Assembly (NCBI GenBank): GCA_964354495.1
Contig: CAYHAA010000002.1
Span: 80,234 to 144,233 of the forward strand
Direction: 5' to 3'
Length of the DNA: 64,000 nucleotides
From: an uncultured archaeon
GTDB taxonomy: Archaea; Asgardarchaeota; Thorarchaeia; Thorarchaeales; Thorarchaeaceae
Positions within the stretch are counted from its first letter, which is position 1, and the number at the start of each line of letters is the position of its first letter. The translations under genes and the position numbers were made by a program. Under the pieces are notes generated by a model. The model had not been told where the DNA came from, did no database searches, and saw only the letters and a program-made list of their open reading frames with translations. Positions 10,315 to 53,073 of the stretch are shown here, piece after piece.

Positions 10315-10402
10315 CCAATACGTTTTGAGTCGCTACTTCGAAATACACAGCACGTGAAACTCCAGCAGTACCTTTATTACGTAGTTCACTATTGTTAATA
10401 AT

Positions 10403-11824: not shown

Positions 11825-11994
11825 TCTCGATGGTATGGCGGGTCATTCTACATAGGAGAATGACACTCTCTGAAGAGATTCGTACTCACGAAGTGAATCC
11901 TGCATCATTTACTGTCTGATTTAGAGTCGAAAGACAATATAGTCTGTTTGCTTAACAAGAACGCTGTAGTAGCTACTCTGGACGGAATTAGAAA

Positions 11995-12858
11995 ATGTGC
12001 GAGTGGTGTTTCAAGCACGGAGCTGGAAAAAGATGGTACCTTAACTCCAAGAATTACCTGGAGCAGACAGCACGGGAAACAAATGCTCACGAATATATTT
12101 TCGAGCTCTGGAAGCAATTCGAGAAGATCTATCTCCAGAAGATCTATGGCATCTCAATGAAAGGACCGGGATACAAGTTCAGCACGCCCATTGTTGGCAG
12201 AGCATTGAAAGGCTATGTGAATTCATGGTTCCGCAAGGAGAAGGGAATACGCAACCCCCGGCGTGGCGAAGGGCATCCCGGTCAAGTTGTGACTCTAGAA
12301 GATGCCAAGAAGATACTTGAAATTGCCAGTCCAGTCTTGAAGGTCAATTGTGCGTGTCGACAGATGAGCCGTGGAATCCAGGATCCATGCTGTCTCACAT
12401 TTGGAGCCCTTGCCGAGGAGGTTCCGAAGCTGCCAAGATTCATTCCTGAACGGGGGGCGGAGTGGCTTCATGTGGATGAGGCTCAAGACTTCGTTGAAAC
12501 TATGAACAGATCCGGTCGTGTAAACACGGTCTGGTTTGGACCTATTCCATACATCGCGGCTCTCTGCAGCTGCGAGAGACCGGAGTGCGCTGCAGCTAGG
12601 ATCAGAATGGAGTATGGCCTCAAGTTCTTGTACAAGGGCGAATACGTCGCCCAAGTCAATTTCGAGAAATGCAACGGGTGCGCAGTCTGTAATTCTCGTT
12701 GTCAATTTGGTGCTCTGACATTTAACAGCTTGATGAATGCGCCATATATTGATGCTAGGCGGTGCTTCGGATGCAGTCTGTGTGCTACTGCGTGTCCTGA
12801 GAACGCCATTCAGATGGTGGACAGAAATGAGAATCCTGTCCTGAAGGATGTGTGGTAG
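11995..12858 (+). CDS. Fe-S protein: uncharacterised Cys-rich N-terminal domain plus C-terminal 2x[4Fe-4S] ferredoxin domain
   Basis: Two CxxCxxCxxxCP-type motifs (CNGCAVCNSRC, CFGCSLCATACPEN) at the C-terminus. The N-terminal domain carries a CEWC pair, CACRQ, CC and CSCERPEC motifs; I do not recognise its family. Confidence 0.5.
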   Translation: MCEWCFKHGAGKRWYLNSKNYLEQTARETNAHEYIFELWKQFEKIYLQKIYGISMKGPGYKFSTPIVGRALKGYVNSWFRKEKGIRNPRRGEGHPGQVVTLEDAKKILEIASPVLKVNCACRQMSRGIQDPCCLTFGALAEEVPKLPRFIPERGAEWLHVDEAQDFVETMNRSGRVNTVWFGPIPYIAALCSCERPECAAARIRMEYGLKFLYKGEYVAQVNFEKCNGCAVCNSRCQFGALTFNSLMNAPYIDARRCFGCSLCATACPENAIQMVDRNENPVLKDVW

Positions 12859-13080
12859 ATGAAGACGAAGATTGTAGTTGACTACGACAAATGCAAGGAC
12901 CCCCGAGTGTGCAAGAAGTGCCTCCAAATCTGTCCTCCAGCCATCTTCATCCTGTACTCTCCAGACTACATCAACAATGATCCTACTGATTGGAGGGTAG
13001 ACGTGGCATTCACAGATCTCTGCACGAGATGCAATCAATGTGTTAATGTCTGCCCCTTAGATGCTATCACAATCAAGTAA
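12859..13080 (+). CDS. Small dicluster 4Fe-4S ferredoxin
   Basis: CKKCLQICP and CTRCNQCVNVCP motifs at 73 aa. Its ATG immediately follows the stop of the upstream Fe-S gene. Confidence 0.55.
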   Translation: MKTKIVVDYDKCKDPRVCKKCLQICPPAIFILYSPDYINNDPTDWRVDVAFTDLCTRCNQCVNVCPLDAITIK

Positions 13081-13220
13081 TGCGCTGACGTTCAGCTAGA
13101 CTGTTTTGGCAGAAAAAGCGAATCTATTTCAGTGAGTTTTACGTACAGATTTCCTGAATCTTAGGATTCATATGAACGGAGGTAAAAAAACTGGCCGAAT
13201 CAGGCGGAAAAACCGTAATA

Positions 13221-13979
13221 ATGGCAGCAATGCTGATAGTTGGTATAATTGTCGGCTTTGGGATTGGATACTTCGCACCGTCATTGGTTGCATCTGATGA
13301 TTACGATGTGATCATGGCGCGAGGTTCAATCATTGTAGGAACTAACTCAGGATGGCCACCATTTGAGATGGTCAATACAACTACTGACCAATTAGAAGGA
13401 TTCGATATAGATCTAGGAGAAATGGTCGGTGACTATCTTGGAGTAAATGTAACATGGATTGATATGGACTTTGACTCGCTCGTAGCTGCATGTCAAGGAG
13501 GAACAATCGATATGATTGCCTCTGCGACATTCATAACTCCAGAACGTTGTGCAGTCCTTCAACCAGTGACATGGTATATCAGAACAAATGAGGTCATCGT
13601 TGTCAAGAGCAGTTCGAACTTTACAATGGATAATCTCACGGACCTCGTCGGAATGGACGTTGGTGTTCAGACAGGAACAGTCGAAGATGAAGAGCTATCA
13701 GACATAGCTGGTATCGTTCTACACAGGTATCAATATGTCGAAACAATGTTTGCAGACATGGACGCAGGTGCTCTAGATGCTGTATACGTAGACGAGCCAA
13801 TTGTCGGTATCTATGGAGGTCTCTATAGCATCAAGATAATCTTCACAGTGACTGCTCCACCGACTGCATTCTACATCAGATATGGCAGTGACAGGCTTTC
13901 GGCTGCAATCAACAGTGCTATTGCTGAAGGATTTGCAGATGGCACTGTAGATGCACTCATTGCCAAGTGGTTCGGTTGA
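13221..13979 (+). CDS. ABC transporter substrate-binding protein, polar amino-acid (family 3) type
   Basis: N-terminal signal anchor. The blocks GFDIDL, TIDMIASATFITPER and a VDA/YVDEP segment match the SBP_bac_3 fold. It is first in a 4-gene ABC operon. Confidence 0.65.
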   Translation: MAAMLIVGIIVGFGIGYFAPSLVASDDYDVIMARGSIIVGTNSGWPPFEMVNTTTDQLEGFDIDLGEMVGDYLGVNVTWIDMDFDSLVAACQGGTIDMIASATFITPERCAVLQPVTWYIRTNEVIVVKSSSNFTMDNLTDLVGMDVGVQTGTVEDEELSDIAGIVLHRYQYVETMFADMDAGALDAVYVDEPIVGIYGGLYSIKIIFTVTAPPTAFYIRYGSDRLSAAINSAIAEGFADGTVDALIAKWFG

Positions 13980-14688
13980 AAGGTGGCAACGAATGCAAGA
14001 GTCACAGGGTCTTTTTGACATACTTGTATTGATCATGATACGAGGGCTCCCGATGACTCTTGCTCTCACTCTTTTTGCGCTGGCTATTGGTTTCGTGATT
14101 GGAATCGTACTAGCTGTAGTACGCGTATACGCCCCGAGAGAGTTACAATGGATCGCTCAAGGGTACGAAAAGACGCTTAGAGGGATTCCACTTTTGGTCC
14201 TTCTGATGATTTTTGGAATTGGATTGTCAAGGCTATTCATGTGGGCAGGACCCGGAGAAGGCGCATTGTTCGTTGGTGCAGTGGTTGCGCTTGCACTGAG
14301 AAGTGGTGCCTATCAATCAGAGATTTTCCGTGGAGCAATTATGTCTGTCGATCTCGGGCAGATGATGGCTGCCCAGTCATTAGGGATGACAAGCACTCAA
14401 TCTACACTGCACATAGTTCTTCCACAAGCAATTCGATTGTCTTTGCCAGGATGGGCAAACGAATATGCCGTAATTATCAAAGACTCATCGCTAGCTGTAG
14501 CGATTGGTGTACAAGAGATAATCTATCAGAGTGATGCCTTTCGATGGGTATACCCGGAGCTATTCTTTGGAATCATTTTGGTGGTCGCGTTGATTTACTT
14601 TATGTTTACATATCCAGTCACGAAGTATATGGGAGAGGCTATGACAAAGAAACTTAGACGGCTTGGTCTTGGCGGAGGCAAACAATGA
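13951..14688 (+). CDS. ABC amino-acid permease (His/Gln/Glu family)
   Basis: Polytopic protein with an EAA-like loop [32 protein letters not shown]. The likely start is the internal ATG at 13993. Confidence 0.7.
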
Positions 14689-15455
14689 CAGTAGTTCTTA
14701 AAATTCGAGATGTCTGGAAAGCTTATGACAAACAGGAGGTGCTCAAGGGAATCTCATTCGAAGTTGCGGAAAGAGAGGTGAAGGTTGTCTTTGGCCCAAG
14801 TGGATCCGGAAAGAGCACTCTGCTCAGAGTCATCAATATGCTCACACCCCCTGATGAGGGAGAAGTGCTGCTCCGCGGAAAGAGTCTGATGGATCCAAAA
14901 GCTAATCTTTGCGAGATGCGCTCACACATTGGCTTTGTTTTCCAGAACTTCAACCTATTCGCTCATCTTCGAGCACTAGATAATGTCAGCATTGGGCCTC
15001 GTCTTGTTCTCGGAATGACGAAGGAGGAAGCTCAGGAAGTCGCGAACAAAGCATTGGCGAAGGTGAAGATGGAAGATTGTTGTAGCCATTACCCTGCAGA
15101 ACTAAGTGGAGGTCAGCAACAGCGGGTTGGCATCGCACGCTCGCTGGCCATGAATCCTGATGTGATTCTATTTGATGAGCCAACTAGCGCACTGGACCCA
15201 GAGCTGATAGGCGAGGTATTGCAGGTCATGCTAGATCTCGCAAAGGAAGGCACAACAATGATTGTTGTGACTCATGAAATGGGCTTTGCGCGTGCTGTTT
15301 CAGATGAAATGCTCTTCATGGACGGAGGAGTCATTGCAGAAAGGGGAACCCCGCAACACTTCTTCACGAACCCGGAAACAGACCGAGCAAAGCGGTTCCT
15401 GCATAGACTTGAGGTGCTTTATGGACAAGCCGAGTCTGGAAAGGACTCTGAATGA
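14685..15455 (+). CDS. ABC transporter ATP-binding protein (polar amino-acid importer, GlnQ-like)
   Basis: Walker [13 protein letters not shown] signature LSGGQQQRV, Walker [12 protein letters not shown] and an H-loop THEMGFA. An ATGA start/stop overlap with the upstream permease indicates translational coupling. Confidence 0.85.
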
Positions 15456-21708: not shown

Positions 21709-24700
21709 CTAGTCGCGTTTTGGAAGCAATGAACCTAGCAGCCTTCGTATGACTTCGAGAGTCGCCATATCGGGTGGGTCGACAAATAAACAGGATGTCA
21801 TAACGCGCTCCTTCCCAGGCATGATTGCTGAGAACTCATCGACTGCATTCAGAATCACCATATCGCCCAAGCAGACTGAGAGCATATTAACTTCAGTTCC
21901 ATTGACCATGTAACAGAGACCTTTTGTCTTCTTTCTGTTCTTCTCGGGTGCTATCCATATGAGATTGTCAGAAGGCGATACAGCCATGGGAACGTGTCCT
22001 CCTCGAATATCATACATTCTTCCAGACCATTTTGCATGTACTCTTCCACCTGATAGCTCTTTGTCAACTTTGGGGTCGATGAGAATCGATGGGAAGAAGC
22101 GAACAGGCGCAGTTGTGCGATTGAGAATCTGCCACTCGATTACGACAATGGGACAAGCAGGAGCTGTCAAGTACCTCAAGTTAAATTGAATCCCTCTTGT
22201 AATCTGTTGGATTTTTCCCTTCCAGCTAATCTCTACTCCTGACCAAATTCCGCGACTGTAGTTCTTTGCTGACATCTTCTCACTATTTGTACGGGCCTTT
22301 CCCAAAGACTCGCCCATTTCGTCATCAAAGACGACAGGTTGCACTCCGCCATGATAGTTGTCAAAGAATGCCCCAGGGCGTGGAGTTGCCTTCGGGAAGG
22401 AACTTGTCAGAAACTCGACACCTCTCTTATTCTTCAATGAGAACAGACAGCCGCCGTAGTCTTTAGAAACTGCAAACTCAATGCATGCATTTCGCACTCG
22501 GTGAACAATGCATCCCTGTTCTTCTGTTTTTGACACTTCAACGGATTTGCCAGAGCTTCCAAGTTGGACCATGGATATCGGGTCTGAAGTATCGTACTCC
22601 ATTCTTAGATTGCATTGTCCATTATAAACCCCAAATTCATCCTTGATTCTAGGACCCGGAGTGAGGACCAAATCGAGTGATGAATCCTCAGCGAAGTTGA
22701 TTTCTGTCTTGAGTCCATCCAGTTCATGAGAATGGGACTTCAAGACAGCTCTCCATCCTCTTGGCGGCGTCACTTCGAGAACACCCCCATGGGGCGTGTG
22801 CAATGGGCTGTGGATGTGTACCTTTGTATGTGCTTCACCGACATGTGGAAGTATAACAGGATCAGTTGAGATTGTTAGTAGATGTTGGGCAGTTTGCTTC
22901 TTTGAAGCTGACAGTCTCTCTTCATAGTAGTGTGCGACTCGGGACCTCCAAAGTCGCTGAATATCTCTCCAGCTTCGCTTGCCAAAGACCAACCATGAAT
23001 CAGTAATCTTGCGCTTTTCTTGAGGTTCAAGAGTCACGACAGGAAATCCGAGCGCACTCAACTGACCTAGAATGATGTGTATCTCTTCTACTTTATCCAG
23101 ACACCACATCTGAGCCTGCACAGAGTCCTCGTTTTCTACGGCAATCCATCCTTCACTATATGCTTTGGGTTCACTGGGAATAGCTGGAAAGGAAAAGAGG
23201 GTGTTGCCTAGGGGTTCACTAACAACGCCAGACGAGAATGGCACATAAACTTGACCTGCCGCAAAACTGACTCCTCCACCTCTGCCCACTAGACGACCTT
23301 GAAATGTCTGGCTCTCACTACTCGAATTCTCTACCCATTGCTCGTGTTTTATGACTCCTGTGCCGAACTCGAATATTGCCCTATCTTCCACAATGAGGGG
23401 CTTGTCTAGGTGTCTGGCCTGCATAGAAACAACCATTGCAGAATCCGAAGGACTCACAGTCAATTTACGTTCTGCAAATCGAAAAGGACTGAGACCAAAT
23501 GGTGGACCTATCTGAGAACTCTGTGTTATGCTTTGAGATGTTTCTGAATTCACGTCTTGCACTGTGAGAATAGCTCCTTCTCTGGCAAATCGTGCAGTAT
23601 AATGCGGTGAAACAATCACTGCCTCGAGTCTGCGATCATCCTCGCCCACTGCAACGTCCTTCTTTCCGAGGCAGAAGATCGGGATACGAAAATCTCGAGT
23701 TGCTACCTTGATGTCTTTCTCAATATCGAGGGTCAGAGTCAACCAGATATCGTGGGTTCCATCCGCAAGGTCTGCGGATGAGGATACTTCAAGCATAGTG
23801 CCTCCTTGTCCCTTTGCTTTCAGCATGACCTCATCAGGCATCACTTTGATTTGCACGGAACTGGAACTGCTTCGTGCGTCAATATGAGCCAGTGACTCCT
23901 GGTTCAGATTGCTGATGACTGTAATAGGAATTGTACTACTGCCGCCTGCAGCTATACGGCACTCTCCCCAGCGCGTCATAATCTCAGCAGGAGATTGCAC
24001 TTTCAATCCTGTATGCAACATTGAAACCTCGCCATTCATCTCGATTTCTGCGGAAATGGATGGAGCCTTAATGTTGTCCCTAAAGAGAGGCGCCGAGGAA
24101 GTCAAATGAAACGGCACATTCCATACTGATTTTTCGCCGGGTTCGATGACTGCTCTTCTACTTGCATCTGCATCGAACTGCAAACCGGAAAACTCTCTCA
24201 GATTGATGCGCGTCGTCAACTGCTTACCGGAGATGTTGTCGATCTCAAGAGAATAGACATAGGGCAGACCGCAGACAACCTCCTGGGAGTCTACGAGAGC
24301 TGCAATACTAATCTTCTCGCCATTCGATGTGCGTTCTATAGCACTGATGCCTCGAGCGTATCTGTCCACTGTAACAGAAAGAGCCGAATCGCCCATTCGG
24401 AACTCATACGGGTAGATGGCCATTCCATGCTTTTTGAAATCATCCGGAGCCTGGGTTGGATTTCTAATATGCACGTCGTACCATTCGTGAACTCCGTGAA
24501 GTAGATCGAAGAAGGGAGCGCAAAGCGGGTGCTTGAGAATTCCAGGAATATAGTCATACATGCTCAGGCCCTGACCTTCTGGATCCCACATCATACCAAC
24601 TTTCTTGTACAGAGGAACTGCACGTATATTGCCTGGCCACGTGTTGAGATCCACACGCGTGTAGCCACCTGCAGATGCTATTCGGATTGACTCTAGGAGG

Positions 24701-25014
24701 AGTTGTTTGCCGACCTTCTTGCTGAGGGCTTCGGGAGACACTCCAAGTGTACCAACATAGGCAGCTTCGTCATCTCTCCAATGACGATGGACGGTGCATG
24801 AGCCCACGGGCTTGTTGGTTTTCTTGTCAATTGCAACTAAGAGAGCAAGTGCACTGATCTTACCGTATTGTTTCTTGACACGATCAGCAGTATAGGGAAC
24901 TCCCTGAGTGAAACCTCCCGGCCATAGGTCGTCCCAGGTGTTCCACATGTGCGCTATGGCTTCGGCTAAAGACTCATCATACTTCCGTATTTCTATCTGC
25001 ATCGTATCGGACAT
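21709..25014 (-). CDS. Giant (1101 aa) protein with an N-terminal GNAT acetyltransferase domain and a C-terminal region of about 950 aa with no recognisable family
   Basis: The first ~150 aa have GNAT motif A: VGTLGVSPEALSKKVGKQLL. The remainder is soluble with no TM helices and no motifs I recognise. Confidence 0.5.
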   Translation of the reverse strand: MSDTMQIEIRKYDESLAEAIAHMWNTWDDLWPGGFTQGVPYTADRVKKQYGKISALALLVAIDKKTNKPVGSCTVHRHWRDDEAAYVGTLGVSPEALSKKVGKQLLLESIRIASAGGYTRVDLNTWPGNIRAVPLYKKVGMMWDPEGQGLSMYDYIPGILKHPLCAPFFDLLHGVHEWYDVHIRNPTQAPDDFKKHGMAIYPYEFRMGDSALSVTVDRYARGISAIERTSNGEKISIAALVDSQEVVCGLPYVYSLEIDNISGKQLTTRINLREFSGLQFDADASRRAVIEPGEKSVWNVPFHLTSSAPLFRDNIKAPSISAEIEMNGEVSMLHTGLKVQSPAEIMTRWGECRIAAGGSSTIPITVISNLNQESLAHIDARSSSSSVQIKVMPDEVMLKAKGQGGTMLEVSSSADLADGTHDIWLTLTLDIEKDIKVATRDFRIPIFCLGKKDVAVGEDDRRLEAVIVSPHYTARFAREGAILTVQDVNSETSQSITQSSQIGPPFGLSPFRFAERKLTVSPSDSAMVVSMQARHLDKPLIVEDRAIFEFGTGVIKHEQWVENSSSESQTFQGRLVGRGGGVSFAAGQVYVPFSSGVVSEPLGNTLFSFPAIPSEPKAYSEGWIAVENEDSVQAQMWCLDKVEEIHIILGQLSALGFPVVTLEPQEKRKITDSWLVFGKRSWRDIQRLWRSRVAHYYEERLSASKKQTAQHLLTISTDPVILPHVGEAHTKVHIHSPLHTPHGGVLEVTPPRGWRAVLKSHSHELDGLKTEINFAEDSSLDLVLTPGPRIKDEFGVYNGQCNLRMEYDTSDPISMVQLGSSGKSVEVSKTEEQGCIVHRVRNACIEFAVSKDYGGCLFSLKNKRGVEFLTSSFPKATPRPGAFFDNYHGGVQPVVFDDEMGESLGKARTNSEKMSAKNYSRGIWSGVEISWKGKIQQITRGIQFNLRYLTAPACPIVVIEWQILNRTTAPVRFFPSILIDPKVDKELSGGRVHAKWSGRMYDIRGGHVPMAVSPSDNLIWIAPEKNRKKTKGLCYMVNGTEVNMLSVCLGDMVILNAVDEFSAIMPGKERVMTSCLFVDPPDMATLEVIRRLLGSLLPKRD

Positions 25015-39337: not shown

Positions 39338-39898
39338 TTGGAGCTGCAAGACTTGACTACACGCAATCCAATCTTTAAGGTAGCATTGATTGGAGAAGGT
39401 GGCGTCGGAAAGACAAGCCTAGCTGTACGTTACACTGAAGACCGATTCGACCAGCAGATGAAAATGACGATTGGTGTGAACTTCGCTACCAAGAGAGTCA
39501 ATGTCGCTGGTACTGACCTGACCCTCCTCATTTGGGACTTGGGCGGACAACCTAGATTCCAAGATGTGGTCATGGACTACTTCAAGGGTTCAAAACTAGG
39601 AATTGCGGTCTACGAGGTTAGCAGGTCTTTCACCATGTACAGGCTCGATAATTGGATTGCAAAGCTTCACAACAGTGTCCCCAACTGCGATATCTTTCTT
39701 GTAGGCAACAAGATCGATGAGCGTCTTCCGGGGATGGGAGTGACAAAAGAAGAGGCTCAGCAATTCGCGGATCAGTACCATGCTCAAGTCTTCGAAGTAT
39801 CAGCAAAGACAGGGGAGGGTGTAAGCCAGATGTTCGAGGCAGCAGGCAAAGTTCTCTCAGAGCGAAGCACTAAAACTAGTTCCGGAGTTGAACACTGA
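39338..39898 (+). CDS. Rab/Ras-like small GTPase
   Basis: G1 GEGGVGKTS, switch-I T in TIGVNF (a RabF1-like IGVxF), G3 WDLGGQ, G4 GNKID and G5 SAKTGEGV. There is no C-terminal Cys prenylation motif. Confidence 0.8.
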   Translation: MELQDLTTRNPIFKVALIGEGGVGKTSLAVRYTEDRFDQQMKMTIGVNFATKRVNVAGTDLTLLIWDLGGQPRFQDVVMDYFKGSKLGIAVYEVSRSFTMYRLDNWIAKLHNSVPNCDIFLVGNKIDERLPGMGVTKEEAQQFADQYHAQVFEVSAKTGEGVSQMFEAAGKVLSERSTKTSSGVEH

Positions 39899-43266: not shown

Positions 43267-45912
43267 TCAGTCCCTGAAATCTTGATTCTCATATTCATTG
43301 GGATCGGCATCAAAGGTTGTCTTGCAGTATGGGCTGCAGAAGTAGTACTTCTTCCCCTTGTACTCACTAGTCAGTGATGCGCTGGCAATCTCGACATCCA
43401 TCTTACATATTGGGTCTATCGCTACTTTGGGTACATTCGGCACAGTCTGTTTCTCTCCCGGAACATCAACTATGTCTTTTGGTTCAAAACGCCCAAGTAG
43501 TAGAGCATTAGATACAACGCTCACACTTGACAGTGCCATTGCGAGACCCGCGAACTCAGGTCGAAGCGCAAGTCCAGTGAATGGAAAGAAGACACCTGCT
43601 GCGACGGGCACCAAAATCATGTTGTAAATGAGGGCCCAGAAGAAACCTTGGCGGATCTTTGAAACAGTTCTTCGACCCAGCTCAATACCTGATACGACAT
43701 CGGTCAGTTCATTGCGAACCAGGACTATGTCACCAGTTTCGACTGAAACATCGGTCCCCGAACCAAGAGCTATTCCGACATCTGCCTGAGCAAGAGCAGG
43801 AGCGTCATTGACACCGTCTCCTACAAAGGCCACTGTCTTGCCCTCATCTTGAAGTCTTTTGACATTCTCAGCTTTCTCGCTTGGAAGAACCTCGAAGAGG
43901 ACGTTGGAAATACCAAGTCTCTCAGCAATTGCGTATGCTGTTCGCTTCTTGTCTCCTGTTATCATCCATATCTCTATGCCAAGTTGCTTCAACGCATCGA
44001 TGGCATACGTTGAGCTTGACTTTAACGGATCAGATATTGCAGCAAGAGCCAATGCACTCGAATCTGCCGCAGCAAAGACCGTTGTCTTGGCTTGTTTTTC
44101 TAGCTCCTCTGCGTGAGTTTCAAGCTGGCTGATATCCACTCCGTTTTCGTTCATGAAACGACTGCTGCCCACAAGAACTGTTATTCCATTGATTATCGAA
44201 GTCACACCCCGGCCAGAATGCGATTGAAATTCCATCGGTTTTGTAATATGAACATCCATCTCCTCTGCATAGCGCACAATTGCCTCAGCAAGGGGATGCT
44301 CACTTCCTTTCTCAACAGAAGCCATGAGCGCGAGCGCGTCCTCGCTCTTCACTTTCGGTGCCGTGATGAAGTCAGTCACAGCAGGTCGTCCAATGGTCAG
44401 AGTTCCTGTCTTATCGAAGACAATCGTATCAATGTTAGGAATTGTCTCTAGCCCTGCTCCATTCTTAATGAGAATACCATTCTGAGCCCCCTTCCCAAGG
44501 CCGACCATGATTGCAGTTGGTGTCGCAAGACCCAATGCACAAGGACATGCTGCGACAATGACAGCAGTTGTGAAATTGAGGGCAACGTCCCAAGTTACAC
44601 CGCCCAAGAATACCCATCCAAGAAATGTAGCCAACCCGATTATGAGAACAATTGGCACAAAGTACTCTGCTATAGCATCAGCTTTCCGTTGAATTGGAGG
44701 TTTTTGTGTTTGGGCCTCCTCGACTAAACGGACTATCTGTGAGAGTGCAGTGTCTTGTCCGACCTTCGTAGCTCTAATCCGGAGCAAGCCGTTCTTGTTA
44801 ATTGTAGCTCCGATCACCTGGTCGCCAATATTCTTCTCCACCGGAATTGATTCACCAGTGATCATCGACTCATCAACCGATGACTTGCCTTCAGAGACTT
44901 GACCATCAACAGGGATTTTGTCGCCAGGTTTGATGACCAATAGATCCCCGACTTCAACATCCTCTGCTGGGATGGTAACCTCCTCCCCATTCCTAATAAC
45001 CACAGCAACTGTGGCTTGAAGGTCCATTAGACTACGTATCGCTATTGAGGTTCTTCCTTTCGCATATGCCTCTAGCCACCTGCCAAGAAGAATGAAGGTG
45101 ATTAGCGCAGCTGATGTATCATAGAACGACATGTAGCCCGTGAGAAAGAATGTTGCAGCCACTGAATAGAAATATGCAACACTCGTTCCAAGCATGATGA
45201 GAGTATCCATGTTCGTCTTGCCATGAACTAGTGCTCTGAAACTGGACCGATAGAATGGATAACCTGCAATGAACTGAATCGGTGTCGCAAGAATGAACAT
45301 GATCAGGTCCAAAGGAAGTCCGGCGGGAAGGAGTGCACTTCCGAAAGTCATGAACATAATCGGAATAGTGAGAATGAGCGCGAAGACAAACCGGTATTTG
45401 AAATACTTAATCTCTTCTTCCCTTGCAAGGGTCTCCCTATCGACACCCGAAACTGTACTTTCTCCAATTTCGAATCCTAATGAATGCAATTGGCGGCGCA
45501 CAATCTTGGGAGTCAATAGGTCTTCATCATACTCTACAAGGACACGGCCTGACTCCGAGTATGTACTCACTGATATTGCACCAGTAAGAGCTTCTATCGA
45601 CTCAGCAATCCCATTCCATTGGCCATCTCTGGGAGCAGGCTCAAGCGTGAGAGTCATCACAGAGCGTTTTGCGCGGTAGCCGCTGGATTCGACAGCTCTC
45701 TCCAATGCGGATCTGTCAGTCTTCGCTGACTCGAACTCAACCACTGCCTTCTCATCCAAGAGGCTGACTGTTGCATGTATGACTCCATCCTGACTCATCA
45801 GCGATTTCTCAACGGTAGCTACACAAGATGCACAATGCATGCCTTCAATCTTCATGGATATGCGTTCTTTGCCATCACCGACTGTAGTCTGCGCGCTCAT
45901 GATATCGTCCAC
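43267..45912 (-). CDS. copA: Cu+-translocating P1B-type ATPase with an N-terminal HMA domain, a degenerate second HMA-like domain and a C-terminal TRASH/YHS-type metal-binding domain
   Basis: GMHCASC metal-binding site, CPC transmembrane motif [16 protein letters not shown] phosphorylation site and GDGVNDAP hinge. The C-terminus has CKMDVE...YYFCSPYC, a TRASH/YHS-like motif. Confidence 0.85.
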
Positions 45913-45991: not shown

Positions 45992-46597
45992 TCATCCAAT
46001 GAAGAAGTCGCTCTCCTTCTTCCCCTCAGCCTCGTCCATCAAGCGCAATAGCTCTGTGAAAGCATCTTGGATCCCATCTCCGGTCTTGGCACTGGTTTCG
46101 CGAAAGATAGCGGGAACTCCAAGTTTGTTAATGAAGTACTTAGTGAAGTCCTTGCCCTCCTCAGTTGTCACATACTTGGACTTGTCAAGTGAATACCGCA
46201 GGTCTGTCTTGTTTCCAATAATGACAGTGGGTGGCAATGGACCCATATTCTTGAAAGCCTCAACTAGCCACTTGGAGGCATTCTCGAACGTTGACCGATT
46301 CACTACTGAGTATACCAACAGAATGCCATTGCAGCCCGAATAATAGTGGCCTCTGACTTTCTCGAATGTTGGCTGACCAGCAAGATCCCAAATGATGAAT
46401 TTTACGATATCCTGGTTAAACAAGACCCGCTTTGTCGCCAAGTCAACACCAATCGTAGCAATGTGACCTTCAATGAACTCCTCGCCAAGATAGTTGCGGC
46501 GGATACTAGTTTTGCCAACTGCGCCGTCCCCTATGAGAACTGCCTTCAAAATTATGCTGCCATCATCTTGGTCCTTCACTATACGGTACCCTCGCAT
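45992..46597 (-). CDS. Rab/Ras-like small GTPase (second copy)
   Basis: G1 GDGAVGKTS, switch-I TIGVDL, G3 WDLAGQ, G4 GNKTD and G5 SAKTGDGI, at 201 aa. Confidence 0.8.
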   Translation of the reverse strand: MRGYRIVKDQDDGSIILKAVLIGDGAVGKTSIRRNYLGEEFIEGHIATIGVDLATKRVLFNQDIVKFIIWDLAGQPTFEKVRGHYYSGCNGILLVYSVVNRSTFENASKWLVEAFKNMGPLPPTVIIGNKTDLRYSLDKSKYVTTEEGKDFTKYFINKLGVPAIFRETSAKTGDGIQDAFTELLRLMDEAEGKKESDFFIG

Positions 46598-46720: not shown

Positions 46721-47188
46721 TTACACCTGATCCACAGGATTCATCGAAGGATCTTGTTCATCTTCGGTAGTTTTCTTCGGATTCTTGGAATCAAGTCCTT
46801 CATACCTTCTATTGAATCGCCTTAATCCAATGTACAGAAGCCAGTAGACCCCCGCCATAAGCAGAATAGGCGGAAAATGCCAGAGGACAATGAAGCTGAA
46901 TGTCGAAATCGAGAGAGGAGTCCCTTCGTAAACATAAGTTGTTAGTCGCAGCTCATCTCCGCCAGTAAGTTTGACAAGGATGGAAAAACTGTAGAAAAAT
47001 GTGGCCACATACATATCCCATCCAGCATCATTCACGTCCTCTTTATCGATAACGAACTGAGCAACTACTCTTGCCTCATCACCTACTGCGGTCCATGGAT
47101 TGTTTATTGTCATTTCACCAGTATAATTTGTTTCTGTCATCACTGTTGCCTGGAATACCAGCTCCTGAAAATCAGCAACAGATCCCAC
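46721..47188 (-). CDS. Hypothetical small membrane protein (2-3 TM)
   Basis: Hydrophobic helices with an acidic C-terminus. It lies upstream of and co-oriented with the second GTPase gene. Confidence 0.3.
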   Translation of the reverse strand: MGSVADFQELVFQATVMTETNYTGEMTINNPWTAVGDEARVVAQFVIDKEDVNDAGWDMYVATFFYSFSILVKLTGGDELRLTTYVYEGTPLSISTFSFIVLWHFPPILLMAGVYWLLYIGLRRFNRRYEGLDSKNPKKTTEDEQDPSMNPVDQV

Positions 47189-47270
47189 TTCAAGAAGCCT
47201 TAGAACAAAGTATAATTCTGAAACGGAATCAGTTGTCCAAAAATCATAGTGAAATGAGGGCGGATCAAGA

Positions 47271-48299
47271 ATGAGAATGCTGCTATTCGTGGGTGTCTTG
47301 GTAGCGATATTGCTCTATTCGATTGGATTTGATGGGACGTACATGTCAGATGACATAGAATCAGTGAGCAATTCAAGGCCCAGTCAAACCTACACACCTC
47401 ATGCTCCGATGGTCATAGACTCCAACGATGATTTTGCCAGTGAAGGTTGGTCGGGGGGAGGAATTCAAGGCAATCCCTATACGATTGAGTGGCTCGAATT
47501 CACAAGCGCAATTGACGAAGCATGCATAAGTATAAGCATGACAACCGCTTGGTTCAGAATTCGGTACTGCTGTTTTGCTCCAACCGATTTTGCTTATGCT
47601 GTTACCCTATGGAATGTTTCAAATGGTGAAATCCTGCATTGCATTACAGCTGAACCTGCAGGGATTATCTCAGTCGGCCTGTCCTCAGACATTCAGCTAG
47701 GACAGCTAGAATTACATGGAACATGCATAATCATGGAGTACTCCTGGATGTGTAGTGTTTCAGAGTGTAATACCTATTACGCGCCTGGAGATGGCGTGTT
47801 TTTCAATGGTTGCAGTCAAATGACAGTTGAAGGATGCGAAATCTCGTTTTCCACAGCAGCTGGAATCTCTCTAGCAGATACAGGATATTCATCATTTCTT
47901 GACAACATCATCTATGAGAATTCTATGGAACCGATATTCATCACTGGGACCTCTTCCGAAAATCAAATTTACAATAATGAGATTCATTTAGTTTCTTACT
48001 GGGAAGCCAAGGATGACGGAGTCACTAACTACTGGGACAATGGTGTGTCTATAGGGAATATGTGGTCGGATTATGATGGGACTGGCTATTACTACGTCCC
48101 CGGTTCAGCCGGGTCCATTGACCATTATCCAAGAGTGATATCTTCGACTACAAATACAACGAATACTTCACCGGGACCTGCAGAGGTCTTGATAACAACT
48201 TGGGCACCAATGGATATGTCAGTGAGGGTCATACTGGCAGTGTCAATTGGAATGCTATATGGCGCTCTCGTTATCATAATCATCAAACGACTCAGGTAA
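47271..48299 (+). CDS. Secreted, C-terminally membrane-anchored protein with a right-handed parallel beta-helix (pectin-lyase-fold / NosD-like) domain
   Basis: N-terminal signal peptide. It has repeated G/N-rich beta-helix turns (ISLADTGYSSFLDNIIYEN, ITGTSSENQIYNNEIH), N-x-S/T sequons, a Thr-rich linker NTTNTS and a C-terminal TM helix with KRLR stop-transfer. Confidence 0.45.
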   Translation: MRMLLFVGVLVAILLYSIGFDGTYMSDDIESVSNSRPSQTYTPHAPMVIDSNDDFASEGWSGGGIQGNPYTIEWLEFTSAIDEACISISMTTAWFRIRYCCFAPTDFAYAVTLWNVSNGEILHCITAEPAGIISVGLSSDIQLGQLELHGTCIIMEYSWMCSVSECNTYYAPGDGVFFNGCSQMTVEGCEISFSTAAGISLADTGYSSFLDNIIYENSMEPIFITGTSSENQIYNNEIHLVSYWEAKDDGVTNYWDNGVSIGNMWSDYDGTGYYYVPGSAGSIDHYPRVISSTTNTTNTSPGPAEVLITTWAPMDMSVRVILAVSIGMLYGALVIIIIKRLR

Positions 48300-48402: not shown

Positions 48403-49086
48403 TTAGATCTTCTTGGAACCTTCTCGAATTACAAGTTTGGTCATCCTATCTCGATGAGTTTCGAAGTATCTAGCGACTAACTCAGGTTCCCTCTTACTTA
48501 ACTCACGTAAAACCCACCCGGCAGCCTTTCCAACAAAGAACTCCTCGTCAGAGATGTGAGGCGTGACTCCATCAAGTATCCTCTTGCTATATTCCTGTCT
48601 GTATTGAGCCTTTAGTGATAGGTAGAGATAAGGCAACACTGAACAGCGGCGCCTCCAGAAGTTCTCAGACTTGCGCCATGACTTGATGACATTCTCTACC
48701 TCAGGGTCGCGAAGTAAGAGGATTCCAATTGTGGGAGAGCAGAGAGGGTCGGTGATCCCCCACGTATCAGCTTCGTCAATCCAAGAGTCAGCGATTCCTA
48801 AAGCCACAATAACATCGCCTTTCCGCGCGTATTCCCTCATAACATCGATTGCTGCAGCTCGAGTTTCAAAAGTCTTGGTATTCCACAGCATCTTCATGAG
48901 AACAGGCAAATCATCAATCAACAGGTTGTGGATATTCGCCTTCACAATCCGATGGATGCCCGGGAGCTCAACTCCTATGAAGGCAAGACTTGATGTCCTA
49001 AGATAGCTGGCCGACCTCGCTTTTCTTTCCGAATTGCCACTCGACTCAAGCTCTGAGTAAATACGTCCGCATACCTGTTCAATCAC
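48403..49086 (-). CDS. DNA alkylation repair protein, AlkD/AlkC-like HEAT-repeat glycosylase family
   Basis: 227 aa all-alpha protein with conserved Trp/Arg positions (FVGKAAGWVLRELSK, WRRRCSVLPY) typical of the DNA_alkylation family. Confidence 0.55.
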   Translation of the reverse strand: MIEQVCGRIYSELESSGNSERKARSASYLRTSSLAFIGVELPGIHRIVKANIHNLLIDDLPVLMKMLWNTKTFETRAAAIDVMREYARKGDVIVALGIADSWIDEADTWGITDPLCSPTIGILLLRDPEVENVIKSWRKSENFWRRRCSVLPYLYLSLKAQYRQEYSKRILDGVTPHISDEEFFVGKAAGWVLRELSKREPELVARYFETHRDRMTKLVIREGSKKI

Positions 49087-49170
49087 ATCTTAGAAAGTGT
49101 GTGACTCTGATATAACAATGCTTGGTCTTCAAATGCTTGTCGAAGACTCTCTAGCAAGTAACTGAACCAC

Positions 49171-50217
49171 TCAGGTGCCCTGGAGGAAGGACATATCCGC
49201 CTTCTTGAAAGCAGCGAACGCGCTCTTGCCTTTCTTTTCGTCGAGTGCTTTCGCATATGACTGGAGAGTCTTGAGAGATGTCATGCCGCCAAGAGCATCA
49301 TCAAATGAAATCTTCAGAGCCCAGACGGGCTCACCTGTGACCGGAATGCGCTCCCGCAACCAACCGGTGGGAGTCATGAGCTTGTTCCTCTCCCGAGTGA
49401 AAAACTCCATCTCAGAGAGAATGCCTATTCCAGACATTACGTCAAGCCATCGTTTCCAAGCATCTTCACTAGTGGGAAAACCTGATGTTCCTGTCTTATT
49501 CGCATTAATCGTTATCGAGTCAACTGAAACCTTTGTATCTTTCAATGTTCCATAACTCGCTATGATCCACAGAAGACGGAGCAGGACTTCGCGATGAACA
49601 ATGAGTAGCTCCTGACCTGCGATTGTATCGATATCGCTCAAGCCGAGGGAGGATGTGATGACTTTGGAGAGAGCATTATGGAGTGCCAGATACGCTGTGC
49701 TCTTCTTGTCCATCTTCACCTTGGGAAACGCCAGTGTCTTTGGCGTTTTCAGATCGACTCCTTCCACTTCACGAATTTGGTCAGGACCAAGACCAGCTCG
49801 TATTTCATCGAGGGCCTTCTTTCCTTCGTAGGGTCTTAGGTATACTTGATACTTGTCATTCGGGATAGGTTCGCCTAGACGTTCTTCTGCTTCTTGTACC
49901 CTATCAACACGATTCATCGCTTGGATTTTATCACACGGGTACCTTGAACAAAACGCACAATTCTCAAAATGATTATGAAAGGCACACTTACGGGAAGGGC
50001 AACCTCTGATGAAGTTGTGGACTCCTACATCCTTTGCTAGTTTCTCATTCGGCGTTTGACAGCCTTGACAGGGATTCTTCGCTGGCGTGAATCCCAAATA
50101 CCTCTTTGCATCCTCGACATATGACTCCCACTCTCCTGGGCTTTGATTCGTTCGAATCCAATGACCCCACGGGCATATTGAGCACAAATTCCCACACTTG
50201 CTGATTACTGGTTTCAT
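49171..50217 (-). CDS. Cys-rich (DUF3795-like zinc-binding) N-terminal domain fused to a ~240-aa domain with no recognisable family
   Basis: The N-terminal ~100 aa carry CGNLCSICPW, CQGCQTP, CPSRKCAFHNHFENCAFCSRYPC (10+ Cys). The C-terminal domain is soluble with no motifs I recognise. Confidence 0.4.
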   Translation of the reverse strand: MKPVISKCGNLCSICPWGHWIRTNQSPGEWESYVEDAKRYLGFTPAKNPCQGCQTPNEKLAKDVGVHNFIRGCPSRKCAFHNHFENCAFCSRYPCDKIQAMNRVDRVQEAEERLGEPIPNDKYQVYLRPYEGKKALDEIRAGLGPDQIREVEGVDLKTPKTLAFPKVKMDKKSTAYLALHNALSKVITSSLGLSDIDTIAGQELLIVHREVLLRLLWIIASYGTLKDTKVSVDSITINANKTGTSGFPTSEDAWKRWLDVMSGIGILSEMEFFTRERNKLMTPTGWLRERIPVTGEPVWALKISFDDALGGMTSLKTLQSYAKALDEKKGKSAFAAFKKADMSFLQGT

Positions 50218-50465
50218 GATCCCGACATCTCCGTTTTTCCAGCTCGTAAGAGCACAATAATCTCCCTCCTATTAATAAGCAACGCGTGGTTGTCAATTGC
50301 GACTAGTCGCACACAAAATGGGACTTTCCACTGATGGATCATGGAGAACAAAACGAAGAATCAGGTGACTGGGATTTTATGGTGGGATATTAGTTCCGCA
50401 CGATTCCGAAATCTTCTTCAACTGACTGACCAAATAGAACCGGGTTTGCCACCAAGCGCCATCAT

Positions 50466-51323
50466 ATGGAGACAACTGGGATGAGTGTTGAGCTACCTGA
50501 AGCAATGATTCTTGCTGAGCAAATGACAAAGACGTTACTCGGCAAACAAATCAAAGCATGTGAAATGTGGGACTATGAGAAACTGCAGAAAATCGGGTTC
50601 TTCAATAAAGACATCAAAGAATTCAATCGCCTCATAGGCTGTAAGATAGCGTCAATTCATCAGCGCGGAAACGTGATTCGCATTCAATTGAATAAAAAAC
50701 TGAATCTCGTGTTGAGTCCGGACTATGGGGCAGAAATCCTCTACCATTCATCCGAGGAGTCACTGCCAAAGAAGCATCATTTGAAAGTCGGCTTTGCAGA
50801 TGGCTCATATCTGACAATAAGGCAGACAGGCATGGGGATGATATACTGTGCAGCAGACAATGAGGTCAATAATCTATATGTTGTCAAACGGGATTTCTCA
50901 GAAACTCCGTCCCCTATTGGAGAGAATCAATTCACCTTCGACAAATTCACTGAGCTACTGGATAAAAGGGGTCAGAACATCAAGGCAGCTCTCGTCGGAA
51001 AGACTGCAGTTGTAGTAGGTCTAAGTAATGCTGCATTTCAAGAGATAATCTACAAAGCAGGAATCCATCCAAAGAGGAACACCTCCACATTATCAGAGAG
51101 TGAGAAACACGCCGTCTTCGAGGCTATGAAGGAGATTCTCAATGCACGCGTTTCTTCAGGTGGAAAGGAAAACTGGATTGACCTCTATGGAAAACCAGGG
51201 CGTCATACTCCAGTAATGGGTTCCAACATGAAGGACAAGAGCTGTCCTCAATGCGGGGCAAGAATTGAGATGATAGCTCATGGAGGCGGTCAGGTCTACT
51301 TCTGTCCAAGATGTCAGAAATGA
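50466..51323 (+). CDS. Fpg/Nei-family DNA glycosylase (H2TH + C-terminal zinc finger) with non-canonical N-terminus
   Basis: N-terminal SVELPEAMILAEQM aligns to Fpg PELPEVE with Val at the Pro2 position. H2TH motif LVGKTAVVVGLSNAAFQEIIYKAGIHP and zinc finger CPQCGARIEM...GQVYFCPRCQ are present. The probable start is the ATG at 50481 (MSVELPE). Confidence 0.7.
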   Translation: METTGMSVELPEAMILAEQMTKTLLGKQIKACEMWDYEKLQKIGFFNKDIKEFNRLIGCKIASIHQRGNVIRIQLNKKLNLVLSPDYGAEILYHSSEESLPKKHHLKVGFADGSYLTIRQTGMGMIYCAADNEVNNLYVVKRDFSETPSPIGENQFTFDKFTELLDKRGQNIKAALVGKTAVVVGLSNAAFQEIIYKAGIHPKRNTSTLSESEKHAVFEAMKEILNARVSSGGKENWIDLYGKPGRHTPVMGSNMKDKSCPQCGARIEMIAHGGGQVYFCPRCQK

Positions 51324-51408: not shown

Positions 51409-52149
51409 ATGGTAGATCTATTCTTTGGAGACTTGACCCTTCCGGATGTCACAATGGCAGCTGCAACTGGAGTAGTTGCTTCACTGGTTTTGACAGTTGC
51501 ATACTACATGGCGTCGTCAGGGAGACCTAGATGGAAGGCAAGAAAACTCGTTCATGCTTCAATGGGTACTGTTGTGGGTCTTACTCTTGTGGGATACTCG
51601 AATTTGAGCGGGCCGACATTGGCGGCAGCAATCTTCTTGTTCATTCTCTTTTACGCCTGGGCTCACAAGAGCGAGCTCATCTGGGACTTGCTGCTCGCAG
51701 GCAGTCGTGAGGGCGAATCTCGCGCGAATACATTCATGGCAGGTCTAATGGGCATGATTTCCTTTGGCACCGTTTTCCTTTTGTTTTTCTCCAGACCAGA
51801 GATTTTCGTGGCGGCTATCCTCGCTGTTGCATGGGGAGATGCAGCCGGAGAGGTGATAGGGAGGCCTTATGGAGGCAGAGTCTTCAAACGTAGGTTCCGG
51901 AATAAAACAGTCGAGGGGAGCATTGGCGTATTCATATTCACCGTTCTCTCAATCTTGGCATCGTTGGTCGCTTATTCTCCGGACACATGCATTTCTTGTG
52001 TCTTTCCTCTAGTTCTCATAGTAGCGGCCTGTGCCACAATTGCTGAAGTTCTCAGTATTGGATGGACTGACAACTTCTTTATCCCTATGGTAACGGCCAT
52101 AGCTATGTGGTTGTTTATCTTTCCAGGAATAATCCTTCTTCCACTGTAG
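51409..52149 (+). CDS. Polyprenol/dolichol-kinase-like CTP-dependent membrane protein (CdsA/DolK/VTE5 family)
   Basis: 7-TM protein with the C-terminal signature WGDAAGEVIGRPYGG...NKTVEGSIGVF. Confidence 0.45.
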   Translation: MVDLFFGDLTLPDVTMAAATGVVASLVLTVAYYMASSGRPRWKARKLVHASMGTVVGLTLVGYSNLSGPTLAAAIFLFILFYAWAHKSELIWDLLLAGSREGESRANTFMAGLMGMISFGTVFLLFFSRPEIFVAAILAVAWGDAAGEVIGRPYGGRVFKRRFRNKTVEGSIGVFIFTVLSILASLVAYSPDTCISCVFPLVLIVAACATIAEVLSIGWTDNFFIPMVTAIAMWLFIFPGIILLPL

Positions 52150-52155
52150 ATTAGC

Positions 52156-53073
52156 TCAAATCTGACCCCAATCACTGATGCGTTCTATGCCTGACTCGCC
52201 AAGTTCACAGACAAGTTTGAGTTCTGCAAGTATGCCAGACCATCCAACATCATAGCCAATGACAGCAGAGGGTGACTTGAAACCGTGATGATGGACGGTG
52301 ACCAGGGTATGATCATTGACCTCTTCGAACCGAACATTCACGAGGGTCTCAGGCTCATCGCCATGTACCCACGAGAATTCCAGCTCCTTGTCAGGAATCA
52401 TTTTCTTGAATACTACAGGACCCTTTCCTTCAGCCCACCATGTGTATATTCCAGCGTACTGCCTATCCACAACCGGTCGGTCCGCCCTGATGAAGTGTTT
52501 CAGTTTTTCAGGATTCGTCCACACATCAAAGGGCAATGAAGGTGGCGTCTTACAGATGACACTAAGCCGGACATCCACAGGGTCATAACGCGTGACTCTG
52601 AGAGGATGATAATCTTCGTAGTCAAATCGCAAGGCGGGAGCGCCTAGTTCAACCGCACTCTTGAAATTGGCCAAAAGCAAGTTCCAGTGCTCAGGCAAAT
52701 GATAGTTTCTCGCTGAAACTGGTACTGCGCCATGGTTGACCTGTATCATTGTGCCAGGACCTATTGGATTGAATCGGATGACCAAGAGGGTATCGACCCC
52801 CATGATTCTCCAGCTCAGGAGGAGGATCTTCTTCTGTTTGACTTCCTTAATCTCCCACTGATTTGCTATCTCAGGAGTTGTGGGCGCATTTGGTCCAAGA
52901 AACCTGATTGCACCTCCAACGCGAATGTCAGCACTTATCTCATTCCCCAGCCAGAGAAGCATCATGATCGGGTCAAGGAATGCCGCCCAGACTTCGTCTA
53001 GGGGTCTGGAGATGCGTATCTGAAGGTGAATCACTGGAAGTATGTCTTCCTTTGGTTCGGCCATGGTATCCAC
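52156..53073 (-). CDS. Tandem SRPBCC (AHSA1/Aha1-like) domain protein
   Basis: Two ~140-aa halves each begin with an IxRxIxAPxxxVWxAFTDP-like block (IHLQIRISRPLDEVWAAFLDP; VRLSVICKTPPSLPFDVWTNPEKL). Confidence 0.5.
   Translation of the reverse strand: MDTMAEPKEDILPVIHLQIRISRPLDEVWAAFLDPIMMLLWLGNEISADIRVGGAIRFLGPNAPTTPEIANQWEIKEVKQKKILLLSWRIMGVDTLLVIRFNPIGPGTMIQVNHGAVPVSARNYHLPEHWNLLLANFKSAVELGAPALRFDYEDYHPLRVTRYDPVDVRLSVICKTPPSLPFDVWTNPEKLKHFIRADRPVVDRQYAGIYTWWAEGKGPVVFKKMIPDKELEFSWVHGDEPETLVNVRFEEVNDHTLVTVHHHGFKSPSAVIGYDVGWSGILAELKLVCELGESGIERISDWGQI

Follow-up and report, generated by a model that had tools for sequence, protein, structure and literature searches.

In the stretch of 64,000 nucleotides analysed here (the window), from an uncultured Asgard archaeon of the Thorarchaeaceae (contig CAYHAA010000002.1), three neighbouring genes are arranged around a protein of 348 amino acids that we call X. 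The gene of X occupies 49171-50217 on the minus strand. Downstream of it on the same strand, at 48403-49086, lies the gene of a predicted AlkD-type alkylpurine DNA glycosylase made of HEAT-like repeats (227 amino acids, GTG start); divergent from it, on the plus strand at 50481-51323, lies the gene of a non-canonical protein of the Fpg/Nei superfamily (280 amino acids), hereafter the Fpg-like protein. An earlier note on this DNA had placed three open reading frames here: all of them are confirmed in the open reading frame listing, and the genes are real, with 75 close homologues for X and 422 for the Fpg-like protein. The closest homologues of both proteins are all named Thorarchaeota or Promethearchaeota. 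Its genomic context makes X a credible candidate for a new DNA-damage factor, though not a proven one.

X consists of two domains joined by a linker. The N-terminal domain (amino acids 5-99; 49921-50205, minus strand) matches the Pfam family PF12675, DUF3795, with E=4.4e-10 and 40.3 bits against a gathering cut-off of 22.6; scanned alone, it reaches E=2.1e-11 and 44.5 bits. The Cys-rich, DUF3795-like domain described in the earlier note is thereby borne out. Invariant positions were taken from an alignment of 44 homologues (A1), in which ten cysteines are strictly kept: C8-x3-C12-x2-C15, C50-x2-C53, C73-x4-C78 and C87-x2-C90-x4-C95. H67 and several Pro and Trp residues are invariant as well, and the first of these motifs reads C-x3-C-x2-C-P. 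With this signature, the domain is probably a metal- or cluster-binding module, for Fe-S and/or Zn. The only hint of Fe-S in the sequence is a sub-threshold match of the CGNxCSxCPW stretch to a ferredoxin cluster motif (E=0.82).

The acidic linker region that follows (amino acids 101-165; 49723-49917, minus strand; median pI 5.6) is predicted to be helical, with AlphaFold2 helices at 106-141, and leads to a C-terminal alpha/beta domain (amino acids 166-348; 49174-49722, minus strand). The ~250 amino acids from 101 to 348 have no Pfam match even at E<=10, X has no NCBIfam match, and a profile search with the 44 sequences found no relative of it among PDB sequences; the C-terminal domain is thus family-less, as had been claimed. 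Nor did Pfam, NCBIfam or PDB sequences reveal homology of X to any metabolic enzyme family, a possibility that the earlier note had raised. Outside the Cys domain, the polar residues R113, D197 and R288 are invariant, and T198, D233, K241 and D341 nearly so. The most conserved non-core residues cluster in a D-x-D-T loop (195-198), in K241-x-G243, in a 'wing' G-W-L-R (285-288) and in a C-terminal K-A-D-M-R-F.

The AlphaFold2 model of X, built on the 44-homologue alignment, has a predicted local distance difference test score (pLDDT) of 82.7 and a predicted template modelling score (pTM) of 0.80. Confidence exceeds 90 across amino acids 140-348 and is low only in the Cys loops 1-17 and 49-72; modelled separately, the domain 166-348 reaches a pLDDT of 91.9 and a pTM of 0.87. 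The only resemblance of this domain model is a winged-helix-like topology, and structure comparison gave no fold similarity of X to glycosylases or nucleases. The C-terminal domain is basic (median pI 9.3, net charge +5), and it probably binds nucleic acid.

We searched 1.84 billion cluster representatives with a profile of amino acids 101-348 and obtained 182 proteins at E<=1e-3. Every full-length match to the C-terminal domain sits behind an N-terminal segment of ~100 amino acids, which is DUF3795 wherever tested. Given this constancy among so few matches, the combination of DUF3795 with the C-terminal domain is a fixed, rare unit. Apparent fusions of the C-terminal domain with L14, ADH_N and KARI_N were set aside as likely chimeric gene calls. 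Compared with stand-alone DUF3795 proteins (~100-160 amino acids), X has an N-terminal domain that scores above the gathering threshold of PF12675 and adds ~250 amino acids of linker and C-terminal domain that are exclusive to its architecture. Used on its own as a query, the DUF3795 domain yielded just two proteins, an uninformative result. One related island also carries a stand-alone DUF3795 gene, of 153 amino acids.

The X family is small and mostly Asgard-archaeal. A divergent member of 313 amino acids is encoded on an apparently bacterial contig (locus L054, 3572-4513), with patatin-Omp85, GGDEF and acetate kinase genes as its neighbours, which means that the family is not strictly exclusive to Asgard archaea. 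At NCBI it is named merely 'DUF3795 domain-containing protein', and the sole mention that a literature search on 'DUF3795' returned was in an unrelated paper.

The product of the downstream gene matches PF08713 (DNA_alkylation) with E=7.6e-44 and 150.4 bits against a cut-off of 21, over profile positions 3-213 of 213, and B. cereus AlkD structures with E~1e-20. In the phmmer alignment to 3jxz, the B. cereus residues W109, D113 and W187 correspond to identical residues in the window protein. With the catalytic residues kept, its assignment as an AlkD-type alkylpurine glycosylase, already made in the earlier note, is accepted on sequence grounds. The gene is separated from that of X, upstream of it and equally on the minus strand, by 84 bp. 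In this spacer (49087-49170, minus strand), a TTATAT element ~20-25 nt upstream of the GTG codon may be the AlkD gene's own promoter.

All three domains of an Fpg/Nei glycosylase are found above threshold in the Fpg-like protein: the Fapy N-domain (PF01149), H2TH (PF06831) and the Cys4 zinc finger (PF06827, CPQC...CPRC). Among its homologues, [M/V/L]-S-[V/I]-E-L-P-E is the common N-terminus and 280 amino acids the modal length; for this reason, translation most likely begins with the ATG at 50481, which would put the annotated start (50466) 15 nt too far upstream. In Fpg/Nei enzymes, the Pro directly after the initiator Met, which is the Schiff-base nucleophile, has been described as absolutely conserved, and conserved Glu residue(s) and a Lys are counted among the core active-site residues (PMC4075521). 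Aligned with L. lactis Fpg, the N-terminus M-S-V-E-L-P-E places Val3, preceded by Ser2, at the Pro1 nucleophile and Glu4 at E2, so that the helix-1 Glu is retained. The catalytic Lys of the beta-loop (RGK) is replaced by Asn (RGN), and at the position of the zinc-finger Arg there is Gly/Gln (H-G-G-G-Q-V-Y). These features are shared by the homologues, 112 of 120 having [M/V/L]S[V/I]ELPE and 111 of 120 RGN.

The NCBIfam scores are low: 104 bits for fpg, about half the equivalog cut-offs of 203-212, and 53.9 for nei against 252, both below. Val is the N-terminal residue that NEIL3 and mimivirus Nei2 use; relative to them, the extra Ser of the Fpg-like protein displaces the free N-terminus by one residue. 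By fold and architecture, as predicted from its sequence, the protein belongs to the Fpg/Nei superfamily and shares with Fpg, MutM and Nei the full three-domain layout and the Glu of E-L-P-E; it lacks two catalytic features of membership, having Val/Ile at the position of Pro1 and Asn for Lys, besides Gly/Gln for the zinc-finger Arg. With its relatives it makes up a conserved Thorarchaeota Fpg/Nei-like subfamily without Pro2, catalytic Lys and zinc-finger Arg, to be regarded as a putative glycosylase/lyase. The 'Fpg/Nei glycosylase' of the earlier note thus holds for the superfamily and the three-domain architecture, and not for the canonical residues.

With the start revised, the divergent intergenic region shared by X and the Fpg-like gene spans 263 bp (50218-50480), instead of the 248 bp (50218-50465) given earlier. 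TATA-like elements are present in it, as are a perfect 12-bp palindrome, GCGACTAGTCGC, at 50299-50310 and two copies of a direct repeat, TGGGAT(T/A)TTA, at 50370-50392, overlapping a TATA-like sequence. The orthologous locus L001 (77% identical) has not kept the palindrome, and matches to this sequence with <=2 mismatches are not enriched elsewhere in the window; by our own estimate, ~0.06 such palindromes are expected per 263 bp, which is near chance expectation. Across the loci, the upstream regions of X share only BRE/TATA-like blocks.

We collected 46 genomic loci, plus annotated contigs, around homologues of X and searched their open reading frames; the queries were the window proteins and, taken from related loci, AlkZ, Xth, GyrI and OCD. 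In group A, X is >=50% identical to that of the window (Thorarchaeota); in group B, 40-50% (Thorarchaeota plus one metagenome-assembled genome labelled Hermodarchaeota); in group C, ~31-37% (other Asgard lineages; 24 loci, flanks of +-8 kb). An AlkD or Fpg-like gene stands beside X in 20 of the 23 informative Thorarchaeota-type loci (distinct loci, groups A and B together), in at least three arrangements, and this glycosylase adjacency is kept down to 42% identity of X. The linked glycosylase-type gene is usually no more than 1 kb away; in L015, where a UvrA gene intervenes, the distance is 6.9 kb.

In group A, AlkD follows X on the same strand in 11 distinct loci, after a gap of 29-85 bp or of ~0.4-0.8 kb; in the wider gaps, a membrane protein of ~200 amino acids is encoded on the opposite strand. 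An AlkZ-like glycosylase gene (PF06224, E=1.6e-47) lies 0.8-4.6 kb further downstream in many of these loci. In the window and in L001, the Fpg-like gene is the adjacent, divergent neighbour of X; its distance from X is 2.7 kb in L002 and ~7 kb in L012 and L016, and in other group A loci it is not found in the flanks. In L015, a double-length UvrA and a squalene-hopene-cyclase-like gene are inserted between X and AlkD (10163-15082); the same pair lies ~5 kb from X in L005 (12152-13038, running off the locus end). The double-length UvrA has ~1630-1640 amino acids (1639 in L015) and four ABC modules, and scores 1283 bits with the NCBIfam UvrA model.

The arrangement in group B is different: divergent from X lies the gene of an Xth exonuclease III (TIGR00633 equivalog, 308 bits against a 99-bit cut-off), and X is followed by the Fpg-like gene, after 4-19 bp in seven cleanly measured loci and 58 bp in one more. 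The gaps of 4-19 bp are operon-like and suggest co-transcription. A GyrI-like protein, an ArsR-GyrI/Cass2 regulator and OCD are encoded further downstream.

We now propose a role for X in these loci. It would be the constant member of a variable Thorarchaeota island for DNA repair and genotoxin defence, the other members being AlkD, the AlkZ-like glycosylase, the Pro-less Fpg/Nei-like protein, Xth, UvrA, and the GyrI-like and SRPBCC small-molecule binders. Xth and UvrA would process the apurinic/apyrimidinic (AP) sites and adducts that follow from alkylation. The C-terminal domain of X would bind nucleic acid in the DNA-damage response, and its Cys cluster would serve as a redox- or alkylation-sensitive cofactor, or as a structural one. 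We favour a functional linkage because five repair families gather near X in different sublineages and orientations, and the partners form a coherent set. Within this proposal, X as a sensor or regulator of the adjacent repair genes is slightly favoured over X as a stoichiometric accessory of the Fpg-like protein or AlkD, since it joins a Cys module to a winged-helix-like domain, stands at the head of the gene set, faces divergent promoters and persists in other lineages. We infer throughout, and put forward tentatively, with somewhat less than even confidence, that X binds nucleic acid as well as a metal cluster and plays a part in how the island responds to DNA damage.

Several results weigh against this proposal, and most of them speak for its main rival: that X is a general Fe-S/Zn housekeeping or redox protein unrelated to repair, its position in Thorarchaeota being inherited synteny. 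In the 24 loci of group C, no AlkD, Fpg, Xth, AlkZ or UvrA gene was found within +-8 kb of X; the recurrent neighbours there are TrpRS-like, GTPase, Lrp, thermosome and AOR genes. Neither the bacterial member L054, which adjoins patatin-Omp85 and peptidase genes, nor another divergent member, L055, has repair neighbours. Inside the Thorarchaeota block, non-repair genes are co-syntenic as well (OCD, a membrane protein of 246 amino acids, AHSA1 and a Ras GTPase), hence the linkage may be partly inherited and not selected; groups A and B descend from the same ancestral region, so their loci are not independent. In addition, the X family seems to be single-copy in Asgard archaea and to keep its length among them, as would fit a core function. 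Inheritance alone, however, sits poorly with the accumulation of AlkD, AlkZ-like, Fpg-like, Xth and UvrA genes near X in different sublineages and orientations, with the persistence of the glycosylase adjacency to 42% identity of X, and with X-to-Fpg-like gaps that suggest co-transcription. On balance, we consider a housekeeping X rather unlikely.

Other adverse points concern the regulatory side of the proposal and the term used for the locus. Bona fide transcription factors (ArsR-GyrI/Cass2, PadR and MarR) are already present in these islands. The would-be recognition helix of X (amino acids 251-263) is neither basic (median net charge 0) nor conserved, and differs between subgroups. A search for shared regulatory elements, which the earlier note had suggested for 50218-50465, found no convincing motif in 50218-50480, and no conserved operator-like motif there or upstream of X. 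Finally, with Pro, Lys and Arg missing from the Fpg-like protein, to speak of a 'base excision repair (BER) triad' overstates the evidence.

The earlier note's 'candidate new BER-associated or damage-responsive factor' therefore survives in part. In its favour are the linkage in Thorarchaeota-type loci and the lack of metabolic homology; against it are the confinement of the linkage to these loci, the co-synteny of non-repair genes, the non-canonical Fpg-like protein and the missing regulatory motif. The adjacency to glycosylase genes, on whose conservation elsewhere the note had made its proposal depend, does recur: it is seen among Thorarchaeota-type loci, in several arrangements, and is absent from the other Asgard loci, L054 and L055.

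A second alternative keeps X in repair and makes it a stoichiometric partner or an enzyme of the pathway and not a regulator; for example, it might complement the Fpg-like protein or AlkD as an Fe-S subunit for lesion recognition or catalysis. This alternative draws on the tight, operon-like coupling of X to the gene of a catalytically incomplete Fpg-like protein, without canonical nucleophile, Lys and zinc-finger Arg, and on the invariant polar residues of X outside the Cys domain. [4Fe-4S] clusters are common in repair enzymes, and the spacing C78-x8-C87-x2-C90-x4-C95 may loosely resemble that of the cluster loop of EndoIII and MutY. Yet X persists in lineages without a nearby Fpg-like or AlkD gene, many group A loci have the Fpg-like gene >2.5 kb from X or lack it in the flanks, and the fold of X resembles no glycosylase or nuclease. 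This makes the subunit doubtful. More specifically, X could be the missing half of a two-component repair activity, the Fe-S/Zn lesion-sensing or catalytic partner of the Pro-less, Lys-less Fpg-like protein (and possibly of AlkD) in Thorarchaeota; this we rate as improbable.

A reading of X as a metabolic Fe-S enzyme, radical-SAM-like or other, is highly improbable and was rejected: its C8-x3-C12-x2-C15 spacing equals the radical SAM motif, but neither PF04055 nor any other enzyme family is matched even at E<=10, and the Cys domain has only ~95 amino acids, the rest of the models being a helical linker and a winged-helix-like domain and not a TIM barrel.

A sensor or regulator X, as favoured above, would have counterparts in design. 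The Rrf2-family regulators IscR and NsrR, SoxR, and Ada with its methyl-accepting Cys4-Zn site all combine a Cys-ligated metal site with a DNA-binding domain, and are encoded beside the stress or repair genes they control; Ada controls alkylation-repair genes. X is similar to them in logic only: there is no sequence or fold homology, its Cys site is a separate domain of 95 amino acids with ten Cys, its putative recognition helix is neither conserved nor basic, and no operator was found.

The closest parallel to the island as a whole comes from bacteria, in which AlkD, AlkZ and GyrI-like proteins are a known toolkit against bulky or crosslinking alkylating natural products (PMC8626424, PMC9040887, PMC7367128). 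The self-resistance clusters in question contain YtkR2/AlkD with the GyrI-like YtkR7 and nucleases, or AlkZ/YcaQ interstrand-crosslink glycosylases; the island likewise co-localises AlkD- and AlkZ-type glycosylases, GyrI-like proteins and AP-processing nucleases (PMC8626424, PMC9040887, PMC7367128). It differs in three respects: it belongs to an Asgard archaeon, it comes with no evident biosynthetic gene cluster, and the Pro-less Fpg/Nei-like gene and X are added, neither of which we found reported in those clusters. The island is an archaeal variant of a known repair and genotoxin-resistance cluster, with an uncharacterised component that holds a family-less domain. A literature search on Thorarchaeota glycosylases gave nothing relevant to the locus.

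No closer relatives of eukaryotes are known than Asgard archaea, whose DNA-repair toolkits have been deduced almost wholly from homology. X is a concrete, testable candidate for a new repair-associated family, with a C-terminal domain that matches no known family or solved fold. The island around it gathers AlkD and AlkZ-like glycosylases, suited to bulky or crosslinking alkylation damage, with Xth and UvrA, and in this resembles the bacterial genotoxin-resistance clusters. Should X turn out to sense damage through its Cys cluster or to partner a glycosylase, base excision repair would gain a new component; otherwise, X would be one of many conserved unknowns. In the two-component case, it would define a novel class of BER accessories or glycosylase subunits, with a fold not described before, in the archaea most closely related to eukaryotes. 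The Pro-less Fpg/Nei subfamily bears on the chemical evolution of its superfamily, given the Val N-terminus of NEIL3.

On the far side of the Fpg-like gene, the window encodes the multi-pass membrane protein of 246 amino acids mentioned above (51409-52149, plus strand), which has no Pfam or NCBIfam match. Its gene and the Fpg-like gene are syntenic in Thorarchaeota: homologues are found near X or the Fpg-like gene in L001, L002, L019, L021, L023 and L024. Next to it lies a tandem AHSA1/SRPBCC protein, a predicted small-molecule binder (52156-53073, minus strand; PF08327 with E=1.6e-27 in two stretches), which belongs to the conserved block and is syntenic in L002, L019, L023 and L024. X, AlkD, the Fpg-like protein and two neighbours have no match to any PADLOC defence-protein model, and Rfam and tRNA scans of the window gave no matches.

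On the AlkD side, the closest loci have the AlkZ-like gene between AlkD and a Ras GTPase gene (L001, 4047-5393; L002, 10246-11499). No AlkZ-like or Xth homologue was found in the window, where the corresponding slot (46721-48299) holds a membrane protein of 155 amino acids (46721-47188) and a NosD/beta-helix protein (47271-48299). The membrane protein of ~200 amino acids found between X and AlkD in other loci is membrane-anchored, has no Pfam family (L011, 4143-4736; L013, 3845-4498; L016, 9084-9683; L027, 9061-9684; L015, 15195-15821) and is absent from the window.

Elsewhere in the window, an open reading frame of 1101 amino acids (21709-25014) has only an N-terminal GNAT acetyltransferase domain of ~100 amino acids, the remaining ~950 being without a Pfam match (E<=1e-5). 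An archaeal-type ThrRS is encoded as well, and so are two Ras/Arf-family small GTPases (45992-46597 and 39338-39898), a typical Asgard feature; the first of these is syntenic with the repair island in related loci. Beside it, at 43267-45912, lies the gene of a predicted copper-type P-type ATPase of 881 amino acids with a Cys-rich C-terminal tail. Its syntenic orthologues carry precomputed Pfam HMA, E1-E2_ATPase and YHS domains and border the related Thorarchaeota islands.

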